Positions 1-5,378 of a DNA stretch of 5,378 nt are shown here, piece after piece. The stretch lies in IMG/VR virus record IMGVR_UViG_2695420579_000006, positions 1 through 5,378 of that record. One strand, 5' to 3'. The notes beneath the pieces were generated by a model that was given only the letters and a program-made list of their open reading frames with translations, was not told the DNA's origin and ran no database searches. The DNA is from a virus (lineage: Duplodnaviria; Heunggongvirae; Uroviricota; Caudoviricetes). Numbering within the stretch: position 1 is the stretch's first letter; every line of letters begins with the position of its first letter. A program made the position numbers and the translations under genes.

Positions 1-58
1 TACTTAAGTATTTTTGATTCTATTCCGGCACCATCTAAAACTTCAAACGCGTTGAAAA

Positions 59-84
59 TAAAAACAAAAACCCGCCGAAGCGGG
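59..84 (-). terminator. Rho-independent terminator at the 3' end of hok-family transcript copy A
   Basis: Minus-strand hairpin CCCGC-UUCG-GCGGG (plus 71-84) followed by a U-run (plus-strand A-run 61-70). Confidence 0.6.
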
Positions 85-154
85 TTAAGTGTGGGTGCAT
101 TGAGGATGCCTGACCCATCAGAGGTGGCGAGGGATTTCTCCCCCGCCTGGTCTC

Positions 155-172
155 TTACTCCTCAGGTTCGTA
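155..172 (-). CDS. hok: 3' fragment of a hok-family toxin gene, HokD/RelF-like C-terminus (...YEPEE, stop at 155-157); the 5' part is lost in the N gap
   Basis: Minus-strand translation of 158-172 gives YEPEE then TAA. The flanking 3' UTR (97-172) is homologous but diverged from the copy B 3' UTR (284-359). Confidence 0.5.
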   Translation of the reverse strand, partial: YEPEE

Positions 173-193
173 NNNNNNNNNNNNNNNNNNNNN
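173..193. other. Assembly gap (21 N); true length and content unknown
   Basis: Run of n characters in the sequence. Confidence 0.95.
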
Positions 194-238
194 CTATCTG
201 CGAAGGTGCGCGAATCAAATTCACCGGAAATAAACAAC

Positions 239-282
239 AAAAAACCCGCCGAAACGCTGAGAGATCACAGCGATGGGCGGGT
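239..282 (-). terminator. Rho-independent terminator of hok mRNA copy B
   Basis: Minus-strand stem CCCGCC(282-277)/GGCGGG(250-245) with an inner CGCUG/CAGCG pairing, followed by a U-run (plus-strand A-run 239-244). Confidence 0.6.
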
Positions 283-353
283 TAAGTGCGGGTGCGTTGA
301 GGATGCCTGACACATCAAAGGTGGCGGGAGATTACTCTCCCGCCTGGTCACTC

Positions 354-509
354 TTACTCTCTAGATTCGTAGTCTACGAAAACAGCGACCTCCGTCTGGC
401 CGATTCGGATTCGTACCTCGCAGAGGTCTTTCCTCGTTACCAGTGCCGTCACTATGACGGTTAAACAGATGACGATCAGGGCGATTAACATCGCCTTTTG
501 CTGCTTCAT
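354..509 (-). CDS. hok: Hok/Gef-family type I toxin (51 aa: MKQQKAMLIALIVICLTVIVTALVTRKDLCEVRIRIGQTEVAVFVDYESRE), copy B
   Basis: Internal ATG at 509-507 of the 70-aa ORF 354-566, preceded by AAGGAGAAG. Strong similarity (from memory) to HokD/HokC: single TM helix and the conserved RKDLCEVRIR...TEVAVF core. Confidence 0.85.
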   Translation of the reverse strand: MKQQKAMLIALIVICLTVIVTALVTRKDLCEVRIRIGQTEVAVFVDYESRE

Positions 510-566
510 AGCCTGCTTCTCCTTGCCTTTCGGCACGTAAGAGGCTAACCTACATTTGTGAGACAT
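354..566 (-). CDS. mok: mok-like reading frame: in-frame 19-codon N-terminal extension of hok (70 aa), copy B
   Basis: ATG at 566-564 with GAGG 10 nt upstream. Its position matches mok of hok/sok loci (and MokC, as I recall it) relative to the sok promoter, which lies inside it. Confidence 0.5.
   Translation of the reverse strand: MSHKCRLASYVPKGKEKQAMKQQKAMLIALIVICLTVIVTALVTRKDLCEVRIRIGQTEVAVFVDYESRE
523..551 (+). promoter_or_regulatory. Predicted sok antisense promoter (-35 TTGCCT 523-528, 17-nt spacer, -10 TAACCT 546-551), copy B
   Basis: Sigma70-like hexamers with 17-nt spacing on the strand antisense to mok/hok. Same position and similar sequence to the plasmid R1 sok promoter as I recall it. 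Confidence 0.5.
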
Positions 567-628
567 AGATTGGGCCTCAGATTAATGTTAAGCGTCTTGC
601 AGGACGCGTAATGTTAACTGGGGCTTTT
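556..628 (+). ncRNA. sok: Predicted Sok-like antisense RNA (about 65-70 nt), copy B; ends approximate
   Basis: Starts just downstream of the predicted promoter and is antisense to the mok start and SD. Ends in a stem GCCUCAG(574-580)/CUGGGGC(615-621, one G-U pair) followed by UUUUCUCU. Confidence 0.5.
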
Positions 629-666
629 CTCTGTCTGCCTTACAGTGACATACCCGAGGCAGACAG

Positions 667-681
667 CCTCAAGCACCCGCA
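667..681 (-). promoter_or_regulatory. Candidate 5' tac-like element of hok mRNA, complementary to the 3' fbi-like element at 287-302
   Basis: Minus-strand 5'-UGCGGGUGCUUGAGG (681-667) is complementary, with one bulged base, to minus-strand CCUCAACGCACCCGCA (302-287) about 380 nt downstream in the same transcript. Confidence 0.45.
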
Positions 682-684
682 GCA

Positions 685-720
685 ATCTTACCGACACCGA
701 TAAGAAAACGCTATTTTTTA
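685..720 (-). promoter_or_regulatory. Approximate hok promoter region, copy B (-10 candidate TAAGAT at 690-685; no clear -35)
   Basis: Position inferred from the predicted 5' end of hok mRNA; the -35 match is poor. Confidence 0.3.
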
Positions 721-847
721 TTGCCAGCACCATCTATCCAGGCTAGTTTATCTGCGTCAGAACGGCGCAATGCGCTCGCCTGAGATACGTTTACTTGCCA
801 TGGTAACAACAGGTAACGGCAATTGCTGTTTCTGTTTTGTTTCCTTC

Positions 848-878
848 AAAAACCCCGGACCATCAATCCGGGGTTTTT
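848..878. terminator. Bidirectional intrinsic terminator between the upstream operon and the hok module, copy B
   Basis: Stem CCCCGGA(853-859)/UCCGGGG(867-873) flanked by an A-run (848-852) and a T-run (874-878). Confidence 0.65.
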
Positions 879-883
879 GTTTG

Positions 884-967
884 TTAACCCCAACGGCAAA
901 TCGAATACACCACCAGCGCCACCGCCATCGCAATTCCTACCGTTGTTAATGCTTCAGGCCAGGTCAT
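884..967 (-). CDS. Conserved 27-aa micro-ORF ([27 protein letters not shown]), predicted small hydrophobic peptide, copy B
   Basis: ATG at 967-965 overlaps the TGA of the 114-aa gene (ATGA). GGAGG lies 10 nt upstream, and the stop sits immediately before the terminator. An identical arrangement occurs in copy C with a different upstream gene. Confidence 0.45.
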
Positions 968-1308
968 CGTAAAATATCCTCCACGCTTATCAGTCCGTTC
1001 CGCTCCAGATAACTCATCGCCTTATCCGGTAATTTGCAGTCTGGCTTCGCTTTCCTCAGTTGCCAGGTTAACTGCTTTACCAGCATGGTTAACTCATCGA
1101 CCAGACGCTGATATCCCACTGGTTTGTATTCATGCAATTTACCGGCTGGCTCTGCTGCCAGCGATACCAGTGCGATTTCCAGAACAGCAATATCCATCTT
1201 ATATGTGCGGATGATGTCATGGTCGATTGTGCCCGGTATGCACAGTCTCTGTGCTTCAATAGTCTCCTCTGCGTGAGCTATTAACTGCTCTCTGGTAAAA
1301 GTCGTCAT
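964..1308 (-). CDS. Hypothetical prophage protein, 114 aa, carrying the shared N-terminal MTTFTREQ...[10 protein letters not shown] module
   Basis: Full ORF with AAGGGG SD 8 nt upstream of the ATG. Start overlaps the stop of the 55-aa ORF (ATGA). Confidence 0.7.
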
Positions 1309-1472
1309 GCCGTAGCCCCTTCTTGATATTTTTCAAACCAGAACACAACCGGCTCTGCTTCCAGCGATGCCAGCGCAATCCGTGCCAGTTCCATTTGTTC
1401 ACCACGGGTAAGCCCGTTTTCAAGCGGGTTTTTAATGAACAATTCAATACGTTCTTTGGTAATAGTGGTCAT
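1305..1472 (-). CDS. 55-aa mosaic ORF: N-terminal module related to the 221-aa gene, C-terminal 16 aa identical to the HNH C-terminus
   Basis: AAGGAG SD then ATG at 1472-1470. The 5' end is near-identical to 4476-4455. The 3' block 1306-1353 is identical to 4474-4521. Confidence 0.55.
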
Positions 1473-1482
1473 GTGTTACTCC

Positions 1483-1681
1483 TTAACCCGCAGTGCTTTC
1501 AACTGATGAGGGGAACAAAATCTTTTCATCAAACCCTGCATTCATATCATGAACAGCAACACACCAATCCATCGACGAACGATTATCAAGAGCCTCCATG
1601 ATTTCATCCATGCGGCGTAGGTCATACAGGTAAATGCTTTTATCGCCAATGGTGTAAAAGCCAATTTTTTTCGGTGATGGA
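1483..1681 (-). pseudogene. 3' remnant (about 66 codons) of a gene interrupted by the IS600-like element
   Basis: The open frame runs from the IS end at 1682 to TAA at 1485-1483. The first 10 codons of the listed 76-aa ORF come from IS terminal sequence. Confidence 0.45.
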
Positions 1682-1724
1682 TGAGGTGTACTGGCAATAG
1701 CGGACACTACCATTTGTTCTTTTT

Positions 1725-2543
1725 TTAAGCAGCCATCTGATGATATTTTTCCCTGAAGGCTGCCGGGGAGATATTCCCCAGACGAGAGTGACGACGCTGA
1801 CGATTGTAGAAAATCTCAATGTATTCCCGTATTACTGAGATGGCTTCATCCCGGTTATTAAAACGATAGTGGCTCAGGCTCTCATTTTTCAGCGTTCCCC
1901 AGAAGCTTTCCATCGGAGCGTTGTCGTAACAGTTACCTTTACGCGACATTGATGTTTTCAGACCAGACTGCTCCTGTATGACCCGGTAATCGTATGCGCA
2001 GTACTGTGAACCTCGATCAGAGTGGTGGATTAGCCCGGCAGGTGGGCGCTGGCTCCTGAGCGCCATAAACAGGGCTTTACCTGTCAGCTCTTTTGTCATG
2101 CGCTCTCCCATGGCGTAGCCGACAATTTCGCACGTATAAACATCTTTGATGCCAGCGAGGTACAACCATCCCTCCTGTGTGGCAACATACGTCAGGTCCG
2201 CCACCCAGACCTGATTTGGTGCTGTAGGAGCGAACGTCTGGTTCAGCAGATTTGGCGCAACTGGCAGATTGTGGTTCGAGTTCGTAGTCGCTCTGAACTT
2301 GCGTTTCTGCTTACAGCGTAGCCTTAGCTCCTTACGAAGACGTGCCAGTCGGTCACGACCAACGATGATGCCATTCTCTGCCAGCTCCGTCTGGAGCCGC
2401 CGGGTTCCATATGTTTCGCGAGTGCGGATATGTGCCACCTTAATCTCCAGTTTTAGCCGCTCATCACTTTGTTTTCTGTCTGAGGGTTCATGCTGTACCC
2501 AGTTGTAATAACCGCTCCTGGATACACCAAATACCTGACACAT
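1725..2543 (-). CDS. insB: IS3-family transposase OrfB (272 aa from the first ATG; frame stays open upstream into the frameshift window)
   Basis: Protein carries the rve/DDE integrase core (from memory). It is in the -1 frame relative to orfA. Confidence 0.9.
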   Translation of the reverse strand: MCQVFGVSRSGYYNWVQHEPSDRKQSDERLKLEIKVAHIRTRETYGTRRLQTELAENGIIVGRDRLARLRKELRLRCKQKRKFRATTNSNHNLPVAPNLLNQTFAPTAPNQVWVADLTYVATQEGWLYLAGIKDVYTCEIVGYAMGERMTKELTGKALFMALRSQRPPAGLIHHSDRGSQYCAYDYRVIQEQSGLKTSMSRKGNCYDNAPMESFWGTLKNESLSHYRFNNRDEAISVIREYIEIFYNRQRRHSRLGNISPAAFREKYHQMAA

Positions 2544-2578
2544 CGCTTCAATGGGAAATTGTTGTCGCCATTGTTCGA

Positions 2579-2819
2579 TTAACGCGTATTTTTCAGCGAC
2601 TCCTGTGCAAAATACGCTGTTGCTTTTTTTAATATATCTCGCTCAAGGCGAGCTTCATTTAACGCCTTACGCAGTTGCAGAATTTCAGATTCCAGTTCAG
2701 CCACCGTGCGGGAACCAGGAGTACCGAGCCCTTTTCTGGCGGCGGTAACCCATTGTCCTAAAGTGCCTTCAGGAAGAGATAATCGGGAAGCGCCTTCACT
2801 GATCGAAAGTTGATTTTCA
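2579..2819 (-). CDS. insA: IS3-family transposase OrfA, 5'-truncated (residues ~22-100; helix-turn-helix and leucine-zipper region)
   Basis: Translation ENQLSISEGASRLSLPEGTLGQWV...ILKKATAYFAQESLKNTR matches IS600 OrfA as I recall it. The native start codon is absent. Confidence 0.8.
2584..2630 (-). promoter_or_regulatory. Programmed -1 ribosomal frameshift site (A AAA AAA G at 2630-2624) with downstream 9-bp stem (2618-2610 / 2592-2584) producing OrfAB
   Basis: A heptanucleotide run of A in the orfA zero frame. The -1 frame is continuous into orfB. The stem GCGUAUUUU/AAAAUACGC begins about 6 nt downstream. Confidence 0.6.
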
Positions 2820-2820
2820 N
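2820..2820. other. Single ambiguous base at the junction between the truncated IS and the hok copy C 3' region
   Basis: IS orfA homology ends at 2819; hok-module homology (equivalent to 339 onward) begins at 2821. Confidence 0.9.
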
Positions 2821-2835
2821 CCCGCCTGGTCACTC

Positions 2836-2991
2836 TTACTCTCTAGATTCGTAGTCTACGAAAACAGCGACCTCCGTCTGGCCGATTCGGATTCGTACCT
2901 CGCAGAGGTCTTTCCTCGTTACCAGTGCCGTCACAATGACGGTTAAACAGATGACGATCAGGGCGATTAACATCGCCTTTTGCTGCTTCAT
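2836..2991 (-). CDS. hok: Hok/Gef-family type I toxin, copy C (identical protein to copy B)
   Basis: Same as copy B, offset +2482. It differs by one synonymous third-position change (ATA to ATT, Ile, at 2935). Confidence 0.85.
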   Translation of the reverse strand: MKQQKAMLIALIVICLTVIVTALVTRKDLCEVRIRIGQTEVAVFVDYESRE

Positions 2992-3048
2992 AGCCTGCTT
3001 CTCCTTGCCTTTCGGCACGTAAGAGGCTAACCTACATTTGTGAGACAT
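2836..3048 (-). CDS. mok: mok-like in-frame extended reading frame, copy C
   Basis: Identical to copy B at offset +2482. Confidence 0.5.
   Translation of the reverse strand: MSHKCRLASYVPKGKEKQAMKQQKAMLIALIVICLTVIVTALVTRKDLCEVRIRIGQTEVAVFVDYESRE
3005..3033 (+). promoter_or_regulatory. Predicted sok promoter, copy C (-35 TTGCCT 3005-3010, -10 TAACCT 3028-3033)
   Basis: Identical to copy B at offset +2482. Confidence 0.5.
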
Positions 3049-3110
3049 AGATTGGGCCTCAGATTAATGTTAAGCGTCTTGCAGGACGCGTAATGTTAAC
3101 TGGGGCTTTT
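3038..3110 (+). ncRNA. sok: Predicted Sok-like antisense RNA, copy C; ends approximate
   Basis: Identical to copy B at offset +2482. Confidence 0.5.
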
Positions 3111-3329
3111 CTCTGTCTGCCTTACAGTGACATACCCGAGGCAGACAGCCTCAAGCACCCGCAGCAATCTTACCGACACCGATAAGAAAACGCTATTTTT
3201 TATTGCCAGCACCATCTATCCAGGCTAGTTTATCTGCGTCAGAACGGCGCAATGCGCTCGCCTGAGATACGTTTACTTGCCATGGTAACAACAGGTAACG
3301 GCAATTGCTGTTTCTGTTTTGTTTCCTTC

Positions 3330-3360
3330 AAAAACCCCGGACCATCAATCCGGGGTTTTT
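3330..3360. terminator. Bidirectional intrinsic terminator, copy C
   Basis: Identical hairpin to 848-878. Confidence 0.65.
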
Positions 3361-3365
3361 GTTTG

Positions 3366-3449
3366 TTAACCCCAACGGCAAATCGAATACACCACCAGCG
3401 CCACCGCCATCGCAATTCCTACCGTGGTGAATGCCTCAGGCCAGGTCAT
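3366..3449 (-). CDS. Conserved 27-aa micro-ORF, copy C ([27 protein letters not shown])
   Basis: ATG at 3449-3447 overlaps the TGA of the DUF551-like gene (ATGA), with AGGAGG 7 nt upstream. The three differences from copy B are all at codon third positions. Confidence 0.45.
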   Translation of the reverse strand: MTWPEAFTTVGIAMAVALVVYSICRWG

Positions 3450-3811
3450 TGATTCACCTCCTGCGGTGGTTCCGGTAGCGGCATCCAGTGAGTTGAGCTC
3501 TCTACTTCAACGCCGTCTTTGTCCACAAAAGCCATCTTATTCCCGCCACGAGTGGGGCAAAAAACCTTATCCCAGGAACCGGGGAATACATTCCCGAGAT
3601 CATCGAGAAGAATCACATCGCAATATTCAGCAGGAACTGCATCACTACAGCTTATCCAGCCAGCCGGAGCTACCGGAGAGTTGCCAGCCTTACGCATGGC
3701 CATTTCCACGATTTCAACCATATCTCCTGGTGGAATTTTACAAAGTTGCCCAATACATTTCTGCTGCCTGGCATATTCGAGAATGTGCTCCAGTTTGGTT
3801 CGATTAATCAT
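3446..3811 (-). CDS. Prophage protein, 121 aa, DUF551-like (C-terminal THWMPLPEPP motif)
   Basis: Full ORF with GGGAG SD. Start overlaps the stop of the 221-aa gene (TAATG). The DUF551 call rests on the recalled C-terminal motif only. Confidence 0.65.
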   Translation of the reverse strand: MINRTKLEHILEYARQQKCIGQLCKIPPGDMVEIVEMAMRKAGNSPVAPAGWISCSDAVPAEYCDVILLDDLGNVFPGSWDKVFCPTRGGNKMAFVDKDGVEVESSTHWMPLPEPPQEVNQ

Positions 3812-4476
3812 TATTTATCTCCCTTAAGCATGGCAGCGCGGCAGGCGTTCCAGCCATCAACATAATCAAACGTATTACTATCGTTTGGCCCGATTTCATC
3901 CGGCACTATCGGCTCTGGTTGGATAGTGACGTTGGCAAAGGCAGCACGCAAACCGGTTTTAATTTCTTCGATTTCATCAGAGCCAAGCGATGAATCTGAC
4001 AGTGCGTGATGGAATGCGTAAGCCATGTCGTCGTTTACTGCAACCGGCACTGCCGGCGCTGCGTAAAGCGGTGTTATATCTGCCCGAAAATCACATGCTT
4101 TATGCAGTCGTACCCAACACTCAACTTCCGCTTTGTCAAAATATATAGCAGTGAACGTATTAGATTCCTGGTCAACTTGAGTAAACGTCACCTTCCACGC
4201 TACAGCTACGGCTTTCCATCCATCAGGTTGTCGCATTCGCGGGGCAGCATAAAGCTCATGCATTCCATCAGGCAGCGAGTGACCCACATACTCACCGAAC
4301 CCGTCAATACACATGCCCCCATCTTCAACAATGCATTCCGCTACAGGCTCTGCTTCCAGTGATGCCAGAGCGATAAGCGCCAGTTCACGAATTTCACCGC
4401 CGTCTATATCGTCAATATCATCGCGGCCAGAAATGTTAGCCAGCCATTGCAGTCGCTCTTTGGTAATAGTGGTCAT
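3811..4476 (-). CDS. Hypothetical prophage protein, 221 aa, with the shared N-terminal module (MTTITKER...[10 protein letters not shown]) and two LYAAP motifs
   Basis: Full ORF with AAGGGG SD 8 nt upstream. Start overlaps the HNH stop (ATGA). Confidence 0.75.
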   Translation of the reverse strand: MTTITKERLQWLANISGRDDIDDIDGGEIRELALIALASLEAEPVAECIVEDGGMCIDGFGEYVGHSLPDGMHELYAAPRMRQPDGWKAVAVAWKVTFTQVDQESNTFTAIYFDKAEVECWVRLHKACDFRADITPLYAAPAVPVAVNDDMAYAFHHALSDSSLGSDEIEEIKTGLRAAFANVTIQPEPIVPDEIGPNDSNTFDYVDGWNACRAAMLKGDK

Positions 4477-4838
4477 GCCGTAGCCCCTTCTTGATATTTT
4501 TCAAACCAGAACACAACCGGGTCAGATTTCATTTCAACCAATCCCATACGAACCAGCGCTTTGCCTTTCCCGGACGCAAGGAATTCACGACGACCATCAC
4601 TGATAATTCGTCGATAATCTTCCAGGCTACTGCAATGCTTGTGCAGATTGCATGGGTGGCATGCTGGTACCATGTTGGATATATCGTCACGTTCCTGGTG
4701 AAGCATATTTCCATCAAAACGAATGACCGGTTTTACATGGTCTGCATGCCACTTTTCGCCAAGTTCGCAGCCGCAATAAGCGCAGCGACCACCGAACTTC
4801 ATGCGCAGTTCTGCACGTTGTTTTTTCGTCAGTGCCAT
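4473..4838 (-). CDS. HNH endonuclease, 121 aa from the internal ATG at 4838
   Basis: HNH signature CAYCGC...WHADHVKP...ACHPCNLHKH. The start is chosen at MALTKKQ, with AAGGAAA upstream and 1 nt after the stop of the 72-aa ORF. The longer 151-aa frame would overlap that ORF. Confidence 0.8.
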   Translation of the reverse strand: MALTKKQRAELRMKFGGRCAYCGCELGEKWHADHVKPVIRFDGNMLHQERDDISNMVPACHPCNLHKHCSSLEDYRRIISDGRREFLASGKGKALVRMGLVEMKSDPVVFWFEKYQEGATA

Positions 4839-4839
4839 A

Positions 4840-5058
4840 TCAGCTTTCCTTATACGGATTAATTTTATTGTGCAGTGTGTTGAATGACGCCCATACCACG
4901 TCGTTATACAATTCAATAACTGGCTCAATTATTTTTCCGATTATCCAGACAAAAATTAGCGGGGATATCGGTGTCATCAACACGATAAACAGAATGAGAA
5001 ACAGGAATTCTGTTGTTCTACTCTTTCGCGGATATTTTTTTCTAAATAATGTAACCAT
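4840..5058 (-). CDS. Small membrane protein, 72 aa: basic N-terminus, one long hydrophobic segment; sits in a locally AT-rich segment
   Basis: ORF MVTLFRKKYPRKSRTTEFLFLILFIVLMTPISPLIFVWIIG.... Stop is 1 nt before the HNH start. The leader is structured (see hairpin feature). Confidence 0.5.
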   Translation of the reverse strand: MVTLFRKKYPRKSRTTEFLFLILFIVLMTPISPLIFVWIIGKIIEPVIELYNDVVWASFNTLHNKINPYKES

Positions 5059-5064
5059 TCATTA

Positions 5065-5086
5065 CCGCCCTTTCGGGCGGTCTCCT
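5065..5086 (-). promoter_or_regulatory. Leader hairpin CCGCCC-GAAA-GGGCGG (5080-5065) between an AGGAG (5086-5082) and the ATG of the 72-aa ORF
   Basis: Perfect 6-bp GC-rich stem with a GNRA tetraloop. The AGGAG is 23 nt from the ATG in linear sequence but about 7 nt if the hairpin is formed. Confidence 0.4.
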
Positions 5087-5150
5087 GATGATTTGAGGGT
5101 GCAGAAATCCCTCCGGTTAAGGATTAAATTTTTAACAGTGCTAAATTTAA

Positions 5151-5378
5151 TTATTCAGTTCTGGATTTTGTCGCCCTGCGTATCCGCGCTTTCGCGTTAC
5201 GCTCAATCTGTATCAGCTTTTCTATATTTCTCCGCCTTTCCTGTTCCTCCTGGCGCAATAGCCTTACATCATCTGCCAGTCTGGTTTCTCTTTTTGCCAC
5301 AGAGAGCATCCAGTCAAACGGCTCCACAACCGCACCGCAGATTTTACAGCGGACCTGACGCTCTTTTTCGTCAACCCG
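5151..5378 (-). CDS. 3' portion (75 codons) of an unidentified gene running off the right edge; contains CKICG and a basic, coiled-coil-like C-terminus
   Basis: Minus-strand frame is open from the window edge to TAA at 5153-5151 (...RVDEKERQVRCKICGAVVEPFDWMLSVAKRE...ARIRRATKSRTE). Not in the ORF track because the start lies outside the window. Confidence 0.4.
   Translation of the reverse strand, partial: RVDEKERQVRCKICGAVVEPFDWMLSVAKRETRLADDVRLLRQEEQERRRNIEKLIQIERNAKARIRRATKSRTE

Follow-up and report, generated by a model that had tools for sequence, protein, structure and literature searches.

A 55-codon mosaic gene of lambdoid prophages combines an EaA-type N-terminal module with the 3' end of an HNH endonuclease gene

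The 5,378-nucleotide (nt) stretch of caudoviral DNA analysed here (IMG/VR record IMGVR_UViG_2695420579_000006, positions 1 to 5,378; hereafter the window) contains a 55-amino acid (aa) open reading frame (ORF) composed of parts of two different phage genes. Its first 40 codons form an EaA-type N-terminal module, the crossover falls in codon 41, and an HNH endonuclease gene supplied the remaining 14 codons and the stop. This ORF very probably arose by one illegitimate in-frame crossover at the 5-nt sequence CCGGT, between an EaA-like gene and the tail of the HNH gene. Both parental arrangements were found, the joint was read in all three partners, and the chimera was counted in viral contigs and in complete Escherichia coli genomes.

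The relevant genes of the window all lie on the minus strand, as read from the sequence and the ORF list, and fall into two loci (Table 1). In transcription order, locus 1 consists of the remnant of an 87-aa gene, the 55-aa ORF, a 114-aa ORF, a 27-aa ORF and a hok/sok system (hok 566-354). Locus 2 consists of a DUF4014 gene, the HNH gene, a 221-aa ORF, a DUF551 gene, a second 27-aa ORF and hok/sok (hok 3048-2836). The downstream modules of the two loci (339-967 and 2821-3449) differ by 4 mismatches in 629 nt, and the similarity ends exactly at the ATGA stop/start overlap. Each locus also occurs by itself in complete genomes, where both are found 3' of replication genes (YdaU/DnaC-like, DUF977) and 5' of hok and Q/RusA-type late-regulation genes, in Rac/Qin-like lambdoid prophages. 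Since they occupy the same genomic position, they are alleles of one hypervariable accessory-gene slot of lambdoid prophages of E. coli or Shigella. The slot is bounded by the replication genes and DUF4014 on one side, and by the 27-aa ORF and hok/sok on the other. Exact matches to the 221-aa protein are mostly from Shigella flexneri or sonnei.

Structure of the chimeric ORF and its junction

The last 48 nt of the 55-aa ORF, including the stop codon (1305-1352), are identical to the 3' end of the HNH gene (4473-4520), and the two proteins have the same last 14 residues. A preliminary description of the window had already noted this identity; it placed the blocks at 1306-1353 and 4474-4521, which is a shift of one base. 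One extra downstream base extends the block to 49 nt, and position 1353 is a mismatch with 4521. The 4-nt ATGA overlap with the next gene, also described previously, is present at both junctions (1305-1308 and 4473-4476).

The joint is evident from a three-way comparison of minus strands. The donor reads GCAGAG CCGGT GGCAAAG, the recombinant GCAGAG CCGGT TGTGTTC, and the HNH gene TCTGAC CCGGT TGTGTTC. As CCGGT marks both the end of homology to the donor and the beginning of homology to the HNH tail, the 55-aa ORF can be regarded as the product of in-frame illegitimate recombination. A longer microhomology was considered and rejected: EaA variants which continue AEPVVY use CCG GTG GTT TAC and share no more than CCGGT, and the true donor type continues AEPVAKII. 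The PHROG matches of the 55-aa ORF are likewise split, between families of the N-module and the HNH family phrog_2118; the latter match (ORF residues 31-54) is limited to profile positions 252-275. The ORF has no HNH motif and no Pfam match. Its RefSeq entry (WP_000207997.1) is annotated as a hypothetical protein.

On profile evidence, the tail is native to the HNH gene: it falls within the phrog_2118 profile, which the 55-aa ORF also matches there with its end. The opposite direction of transfer, in which the 14-residue tail belongs to a small N-module gene and was acquired by HNH, is very improbable. The sequence identity itself is symmetrical, but apart from the extent of the profile, the tail is present in all HNH variants, including a divergent 123-124-aa form, and EaA-type modules normally continue otherwise after AEP.

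Read from the sequence, the tail holds a Shine-Dalgarno-like GAAGGGG (about 1317-1323) seven bases 5' of the ATG of the 114-aa gene. Expression of the 114-aa gene has probably been preserved, since the 48 nt which were kept carry its ribosome-binding site and the ATGA overlap. An in-frame junction would have been favoured because it preserves translational coupling. The 55-aa ORF has a strong ribosome site of its own, AAGGAG, six bases 5' of its ATG, and is intact in all 55 loci examined.

The chimera does not include the neighbouring 87-aa gene. The start of that gene, MATLTKKE, was considered as a possible HNH 5' end (MALTKKQ), but this was ruled out: distant homologues in phage ST64T and in the Chi-like phage BSPM4 natively begin MAKLT(K/R)KEQAW. 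The gene is placed outside the chimera because the MA(K/T)LTKKEQAW start is native in these distant phages, and because ST64T has an 87-aa homologue directly 5' of an EaA-like gene.

Parental arrangements and prevalence

Loci containing the junction were collected from IMG/VR by an exact match to 40 nt of the tail, which gave 119 loci. On the 5' side of the junction, 54 loci have an ORF of the 55-aa type and about 50 have a full HNH gene; 3 have a 61-aa variant whose module middle is different. The 114-aa gene is the commonest ORF on the 3' side (83 loci), followed by the 221-aa gene (12) and many other genes starting with MTT. As for combinations, 51 contigs have 55aa+114aa, 25 have HNH+114aa and 12 have HNH+221aa.

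The preliminary description had proposed that locus 1 descends from an HNH-plus-partner arrangement like that of locus 2, by in-frame deletion or recombination, and that related prophages should be surveyed for the full-length ancestral arrangement. The survey did find HNH followed directly by the same 114-aa gene, both in the IMG/VR contigs and, as DUF4014-HNH-114aa, in 191 of 5426 complete E. coli genomes. The idea of an HNH-plus-partner ancestor thus stands, but the ancestor is HNH+114aa and not HNH+221aa. Locus 2 itself is found in 2 of the 5426 genomes. Locus 1, without the insertion sequence (IS) found in the window, is present in 315 of them at 99.5-100% identity. It is not an assembly artefact, because these 315 complete genomes hold it and the junction occurs in at least 119 viral contigs.

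Homology between the chimeric arrangement (type A; DUF4014-87aa-55aa-114aa) and DUF4014-HNH-114aa (type B) covers DUF4014 and resumes at the HNH tail. Between the homologous parts lie unrelated cassettes of about 350 and 280 nt, respectively. Intact copies of type A have the 87-aa gene between DUF4014 and the 55-aa ORF (e.g. locus L001). A survey anchored on DUF4014 identified the second parent: DUF4014-87aa followed by a full-length EaA-like gene of 289 aa, whose module is of the same IELF type. Loci with this arrangement, L200 and L243, are 95.7% and 99.1% identical to type A up to CCGGT and diverge beyond it.

Most simply, then, the joint resulted from unequal crossover between two parents at a 5-nt microhomology, and not necessarily from a deletion inside a genome like that of locus 2. 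One partner would have been a phage with an EaA-like gene 3' of the 87-aa gene. The other would have contributed the last 14 codons of the HNH gene preceding the 114-aa gene in a collinear phage. Joining the left arm of the first to the right arm of the second would yield DUF4014-87aa-[N-module::HNH tail]-114aa. One unequal crossover is sufficient because the two parent phages are collinear. The 61-aa variant and a 54-aa variant have different module middles but an identical AEP|VVFWF joint. These are most parsimoniously explained by a single founding event and subsequent homologous exchange via conserved islands; such later swaps of the module middle would have used the islands as crossover sites.

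A deletion within one genome is an unlikely alternative. A single prophage with the order DUF4014-87aa-EaA-like-(other genes)-HNH-114aa would have lost the span from AEP to the HNH tail by microhomology-mediated deletion, and the junction sequence would be the same. HNH can sit second after another gene (MTITTKEQ-126 | HNH126), so tandems are possible. However, none of the approximately 200 loci surveyed combines HNH+114aa with an IELF-type EaA-like gene on its 5' side. Each of the two parental arrangements is common by itself in the slot, and unequal crossover between collinear phages requires only one event.

The HNH endonuclease gene

The 121-aa product of the HNH gene matches phrog_2118 (E=8.8e-57) over residues 1-120, and is annotated as an HNH endonuclease (WP_001229296.1). 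A zinc-binding motif, CAYCGC...HADH...N...CHPCNLHKH, can be seen in the ORF. Matches in NCBIfam and PADLOC are generic only, to other HNH-domain models. In one IMG/VR locus among L002-L120, the HNH gene encodes a 124-aa variant in which MTTITKKQRAEL takes the place of the start MALTKKQRAEL and the middle, VLRHMNGSGMIHAENDTEEN, is divergent. This variant is a second in-frame mosaic involving the same HNH gene, at its 5' end.

The position directly after DUF4014 is occupied by HNH, by the 87-aa gene or directly by an N-module gene, and thus shows a presence/absence polymorphism at one site. This would suit a free-standing homing endonuclease whose cleavage, with repair, drives local mosaicism; the 55-aa ORF would then be a scar of HNH loss. 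The clustering of mosaic joints at both ends of HNH also fits. Homing is nevertheless improbable: there is no sign of nuclease specificity or of co-conversion tracts, the same kind of mosaicism occurs in P22-like ea regions without this HNH, and the junction can be explained without it.

The shared N-terminal module

The preliminary description considered the 114-, 55- and 221-aa ORFs to be three paralogs, on the basis of a common MTT(I/F)T(K/R)E start, an IAL(A/V)SL(E/A)AEP block and a conserved nucleotide core. These common features are real. The start pattern ATGACNACTWTTACCARAGA (20 nt) has three copies in the window (1289-1308, 1453-1472 and 4457-4476), as does the 29-nt degenerate core GGCTCTGCTNCCAGNGATNCCAGNGCNAT (1148-1176, 1351-1379 and 4346-4374). 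Neither was found in 200 shuffles; as both patterns were derived from the data, the test shows only that their origin is not compositional. The reported match between the starts of the 55-aa ORF and the 221-aa ORF (which encodes MTTITKER) extends over 20 ORF nt and 1 upstream nt (1453-1473 and 4457-4477), and the 22-nt span given previously contains one mismatch. The relationship is, however, limited to the module. The 221- and 114-aa ORFs have the two conserved islands of the 55-aa ORF and different middles, and all three ORFs lie within a mosaic assemblage that is P22 EaA/DUF550/DUF551/Ead-Ea22-like. They are EaA-type mosaic proteins, with a module of about 40 aa whose ends (the first ~7 codons and the IAL block) are conserved and whose middle is interchangeable.

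The first 42 residues of the 55-aa ORF are identical to phage P22 EaA at 38 positions and to HK620 HkaE at 39. The same module heads proteins annotated as EaA, DUF550 or DUF551 in about 100 phage records. In a large protein collection, at least eight unrelated continuations directly follow AEP(V): VSQTYELP, VAYMSRQ, VVYMWDSE, VGAFHIAE, VLYQS, VAKIIAHY, VAWMCEDE and VPEWTNEQ. None of the 114-, 55- and 221-aa ORFs has a match in Pfam, NCBIfam or PADLOC. A structural model of the 55-aa protein, based on a 41-sequence alignment, predicts a helix (6-14), a loop and a second helix (23-38) with predicted local distance difference test (pLDDT) values of 86-94; the HNH-derived tail is unstructured. Foldseek searches with this model against PDB and BFVD gave nothing significant except a sequence homologue in Edwardsiella phage MSW-3.

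It had also been suggested that the module is either a recombination linker or a common interaction domain. This can be answered in part, as the ends of the module coincide with mosaic breakpoints and the module is predicted to be a small helical domain. That it is a DNA-level recombination linker and translation-start signal only, with amino-acid conservation as a by-product, is rather unlikely. Among 31 different versions of the module, the island core CTG G(C/T)A TCG CTG GAA GCA GAG CC is near-invariant even at synonymous sites; unrelated genes after DUF4014 share start codons, and one HNH variant has such a start. These observations favour a purely DNA-level role. Codons flanking the core, however, vary synonymously while the residues are unchanged, and the islands of the 55-aa and 221-aa ORFs differ by 5 synonymous and 1 non-synonymous changes in 14 codons. 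In phages of Yersinia, Edwardsiella and Enterobacter, moreover, the module retains 52-69% amino-acid identity, and the two-helix model is a confident one. Protein-level and DNA-level signals are both present in the module, and the two roles are not mutually exclusive.

By analogy with the N-terminal/coiled-coil part of Ea22, the module may be an oligomerisation or partner-binding head. There is also a slight chance that the EaA-type N-module is a purpose-built in-frame shuffling cassette, its ends partly maintained at the DNA level for swaps of heads and bodies. The stand-alone 55-aa product could then be a free head which modulates paralogues, e.g. the co-translated 114-aa protein, by hetero-oligomerisation.

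Unrelated genes after DUF4014 (HNH, 87-aa, EaA-like and the 95-aa MATLQELI) all begin with M(T/A)(T)(I/L)TK(E/K)-like codons and are preceded by the same TAAGGAAAnCTGAnATG (window 4836-4838; loci L058, L187, L200, L232, L205, L214 and L195). The likeness spans the first six to eight codons. Either a common context for translation start or mosaic joints located a few codons into the ORFs could account for it. In another IMG/VR locus (L191), the gene after DUF4014 has a tandem triplication of ACCACTATT at its start, which gives MTTITTITTITRE, a sign that replication slippage may have occurred in the conserved start island.

Block mosaicism of the 221-aa gene

The 221-aa protein has more than 3000 partial relatives. 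Alignments with them tend to end at residue 46 (AEPVA) and at 79-90 (LYAAP), and to begin at 134-142. In the alignment of relatives (A1), the proteins are block mosaics: their N-modules belong to at least five types, or are sometimes replaced by an Ea22-type N-terminus, and are combined with interchangeable blocks. The sole fairly confident part of the structural model (residues ~91-138, VAWKVTFTQVDQESNTFTAIYFDKAEVE.WVRLHKACDFRADITPLY; pLDDT 65-81) is predicted to form strands, one helix and one strand. This block is portable and recurs in many relatives. Sequence searches of PDB with the 221-aa and 114-aa proteins gave no match.

Several points weigh against this account of the 55-aa ORF and its module. 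A two-parent crossover is indistinguishable from a deletion inside one genome carrying both genes. One joint in 3 would be in frame by chance in any case, and the ORF may be a neutral remnant. Its polymorphism over the 55 loci comprises 8 synonymous and 7 non-synonymous variants, a number too small to speak for or against selection. As the IMG/VR survey needed an exact 40-nt tail, it cannot measure conservation of the tail, and closely related prophages are over-represented in it. Any biochemical role of the module rests on analogy, because the fold searches found nothing and the model of the whole 221-aa protein is poor (pLDDT 49). The physical linkage of the two loci is uncertain, because they are joined in the window via a broken IS600 and a single N (2820).

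Comparison with known phage systems

The genes of the window belong to the long-known but functionally obscure EaA/Ea22/DUF550/DUF551 accessory repertoire of P22-like and lambdoid phages. P22 EaA and HK620 HkaE have the same MTTITKE start and IALASL(E/D)AE block as the 55-aa ORF, and in phage ST64T the 87-aa homologue lies immediately 5' of an EaA-like gene. Unlike EaA and HkaE, the 114-, 55- and 221-aa ORFs have no DUF550 (PF04447) or DUF551 (PF04448) domain; in the window, DUF551 is encoded by a separate 121-aa gene, and the 55-aa ORF keeps the module alone. The ORFs also lie 3' of replication genes (nin-like) in Rac/Qin-type lambdoid prophages, and not in a P22 ea region.

Ea22 of lambda and Shiga toxin (Stx) phages (Ead_Ea22, PF13935) is similarly organised as a block mosaic, with a shared N-terminal part and interchangeable C-terminal domains. 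This architecture, including the portable nature of the DUF551 domain, is known from published work (PMC10834534), and a pro-lysogenic phenotype has been reported for Ea22 (PMC7093339). Some relatives of the 221-aa protein carry an Ea22-type N-terminus instead of the EaA module (P0164 and P0174). PF13935 has no match in the three window ORFs at E<=0.1; only some database relatives sharing downstream blocks carry it. The N-terminal regions differ as well: that of Ea22 is a long coiled coil, whereas the module in the window is a predicted 40-aa helix-loop-helix.

General models of phage mosaicism have been summarised (PMC3233612, PMC3945230). One of them, outlined in PMC3233612, explains lambdoid mosaicism by conserved boundary (linker) sequences, which are short and lie at module borders (Susskind & Botstein 1978; Clark et al. 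2001). The start and AEP islands resemble such linkers: neighbours that cannot be aligned elsewhere have them in common, and breakpoints fall on them. They are unlike them in that they lie inside coding sequence and encode conserved residues. No linker-type conserved sequence was found at the 55-aa/HNH junction, where the partners share only CCGGT (5 nt). That joint conforms instead to the model of illegitimate recombination plus selection of Hendrix and colleagues, as the same review presents it: it is non-homologous (5-nt microhomology) and survives because genes and signals remain functional. There is no essential difference from this model; the joint is a textbook example in which both parental arrangements are still in the population.

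Neighbouring elements

The coordinates of all features are collected in Table 1. The IS600 copy is broken in orfA at the single N (2820), after which the sequence resumes inside the hok/sok module; a run of N is also present at 173-193. The N at 2820 looks like a scaffold join or a masked base. A 50-nt pattern from within IS600 matched 44 IS copies in genome contigs of S. flexneri SFBU1023 and E. coli ECMA0423, and the loci of the window accompany none of these. A 76-aa ORF at 1483-1713 is an artefact, as its first residues are from the IS end.

In many related loci, the genes before hok end with the 27-aa ORF, which falls below the usual ORF-length cutoffs and is unannotated in the RefSeq records examined. 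In both loci of the window (853-878 and 3335-3360), a GC-rich hairpin, CCCCGGA-N7-TCCGGGG, separates the 27-aa ORF from hok; A-runs and T-runs flank it on both strands. It looks like a putative bidirectional intrinsic terminator closing the accessory-gene operon. The hok/sok assignment is supported by Pfam HOK_GEF (E=1.7e-21) and, at 504-678 and 2986-3160, by Rfam sok (118 bits). Positions 80-155 hold a third copy of part of the 3' region of hok mRNA, which is 88% similar to 277-352. Together, the copies point to more than one hok locus or remnant, arranged in tandem or carried by contigs that were joined. A phrog_1621 protein runs off the other end of the window; its C-terminal portion, encoded at 5151-5378 (minus strand), corresponds to profile positions 64-121 of 134. 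The full form in related loci is about 118 aa and has CHH...CKIC zinc-ribbon-like motifs.

Table 1. Features of the window discussed in the text, with strand and supporting evidence.
Feature	Position	Strand	Evidence and remarks
AEP island of 114-aa gene	1148-1176	-	Equivalents in 55-aa ORF (1351-1379) and 221-aa ORF (4346-4374)
55-aa chimeric ORF	1305-1472	-	ORF list, codon-level comparison, PHROG matches
HNH-derived tail	1304-1352	-	Exact 49-nt copy of 4472-4520; one extra downstream base extends the 48-nt block
Crossover microhomology CCGGT (minus strand reading)	1348-1352; HNH counterpart 4516-4520	-	Three-way comparison
HNH endonuclease gene, 121 aa from ATG, native source of tail (profile evidence)	4473-4838	-	Pfam HNH (PF01844) E=2.2e-6, above cutoff
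114-aa gene	964-1308	-	MTTFTREQ-type N-module, then C-terminal block from ELTMLVKQL
221-aa gene	3811-4476	-	QWLANISG-type N-module, then three shuffled blocks with borders at AEPV and LYAAP motifs
121-aa DUF551 gene	3446-3811	-	Pfam DUF551 E=3.4e-19; 1-nt stop/start overlap with 221-aa gene (TAATG, 3811)
DUF4014 gene, conserved left anchor of slot	4840-5058	-	Pfam DUF4014 E=1.3e-25; anchor-based survey
3' two-thirds of 87-aa gene (phrog_1714)	1483-1681	-	5' end removed by IS600; homology to intact loci stops at 1681
Partial IS600 (IS3 family)	1682-2819	-	99.9% identical to annotated IS600 copies; broken at N 2820
27-aa hydrophobic ORF, MTWPEA(L/F) start	884-967; second copy 3366-3449 after DUF551 gene	-	ATGA overlap with preceding gene

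Significance

No new kind of element or function is described here; what is new is the resolution, in that both parents, the exact joint and its prevalence are now available. There is a warning for annotation, as hypothetical proteins of the WP_000207997.1 type are fusion remnants and not independent families. The locus offers a mosaic junction which can be read at single-nucleotide resolution while both parental arrangements still circulate. It also places two classical models of phage evolution side by side: a 5-nt illegitimate crossover made the chimera, and in-frame islands (the gene start, AEPV and LYAAP) have apparently channelled later exchanges.

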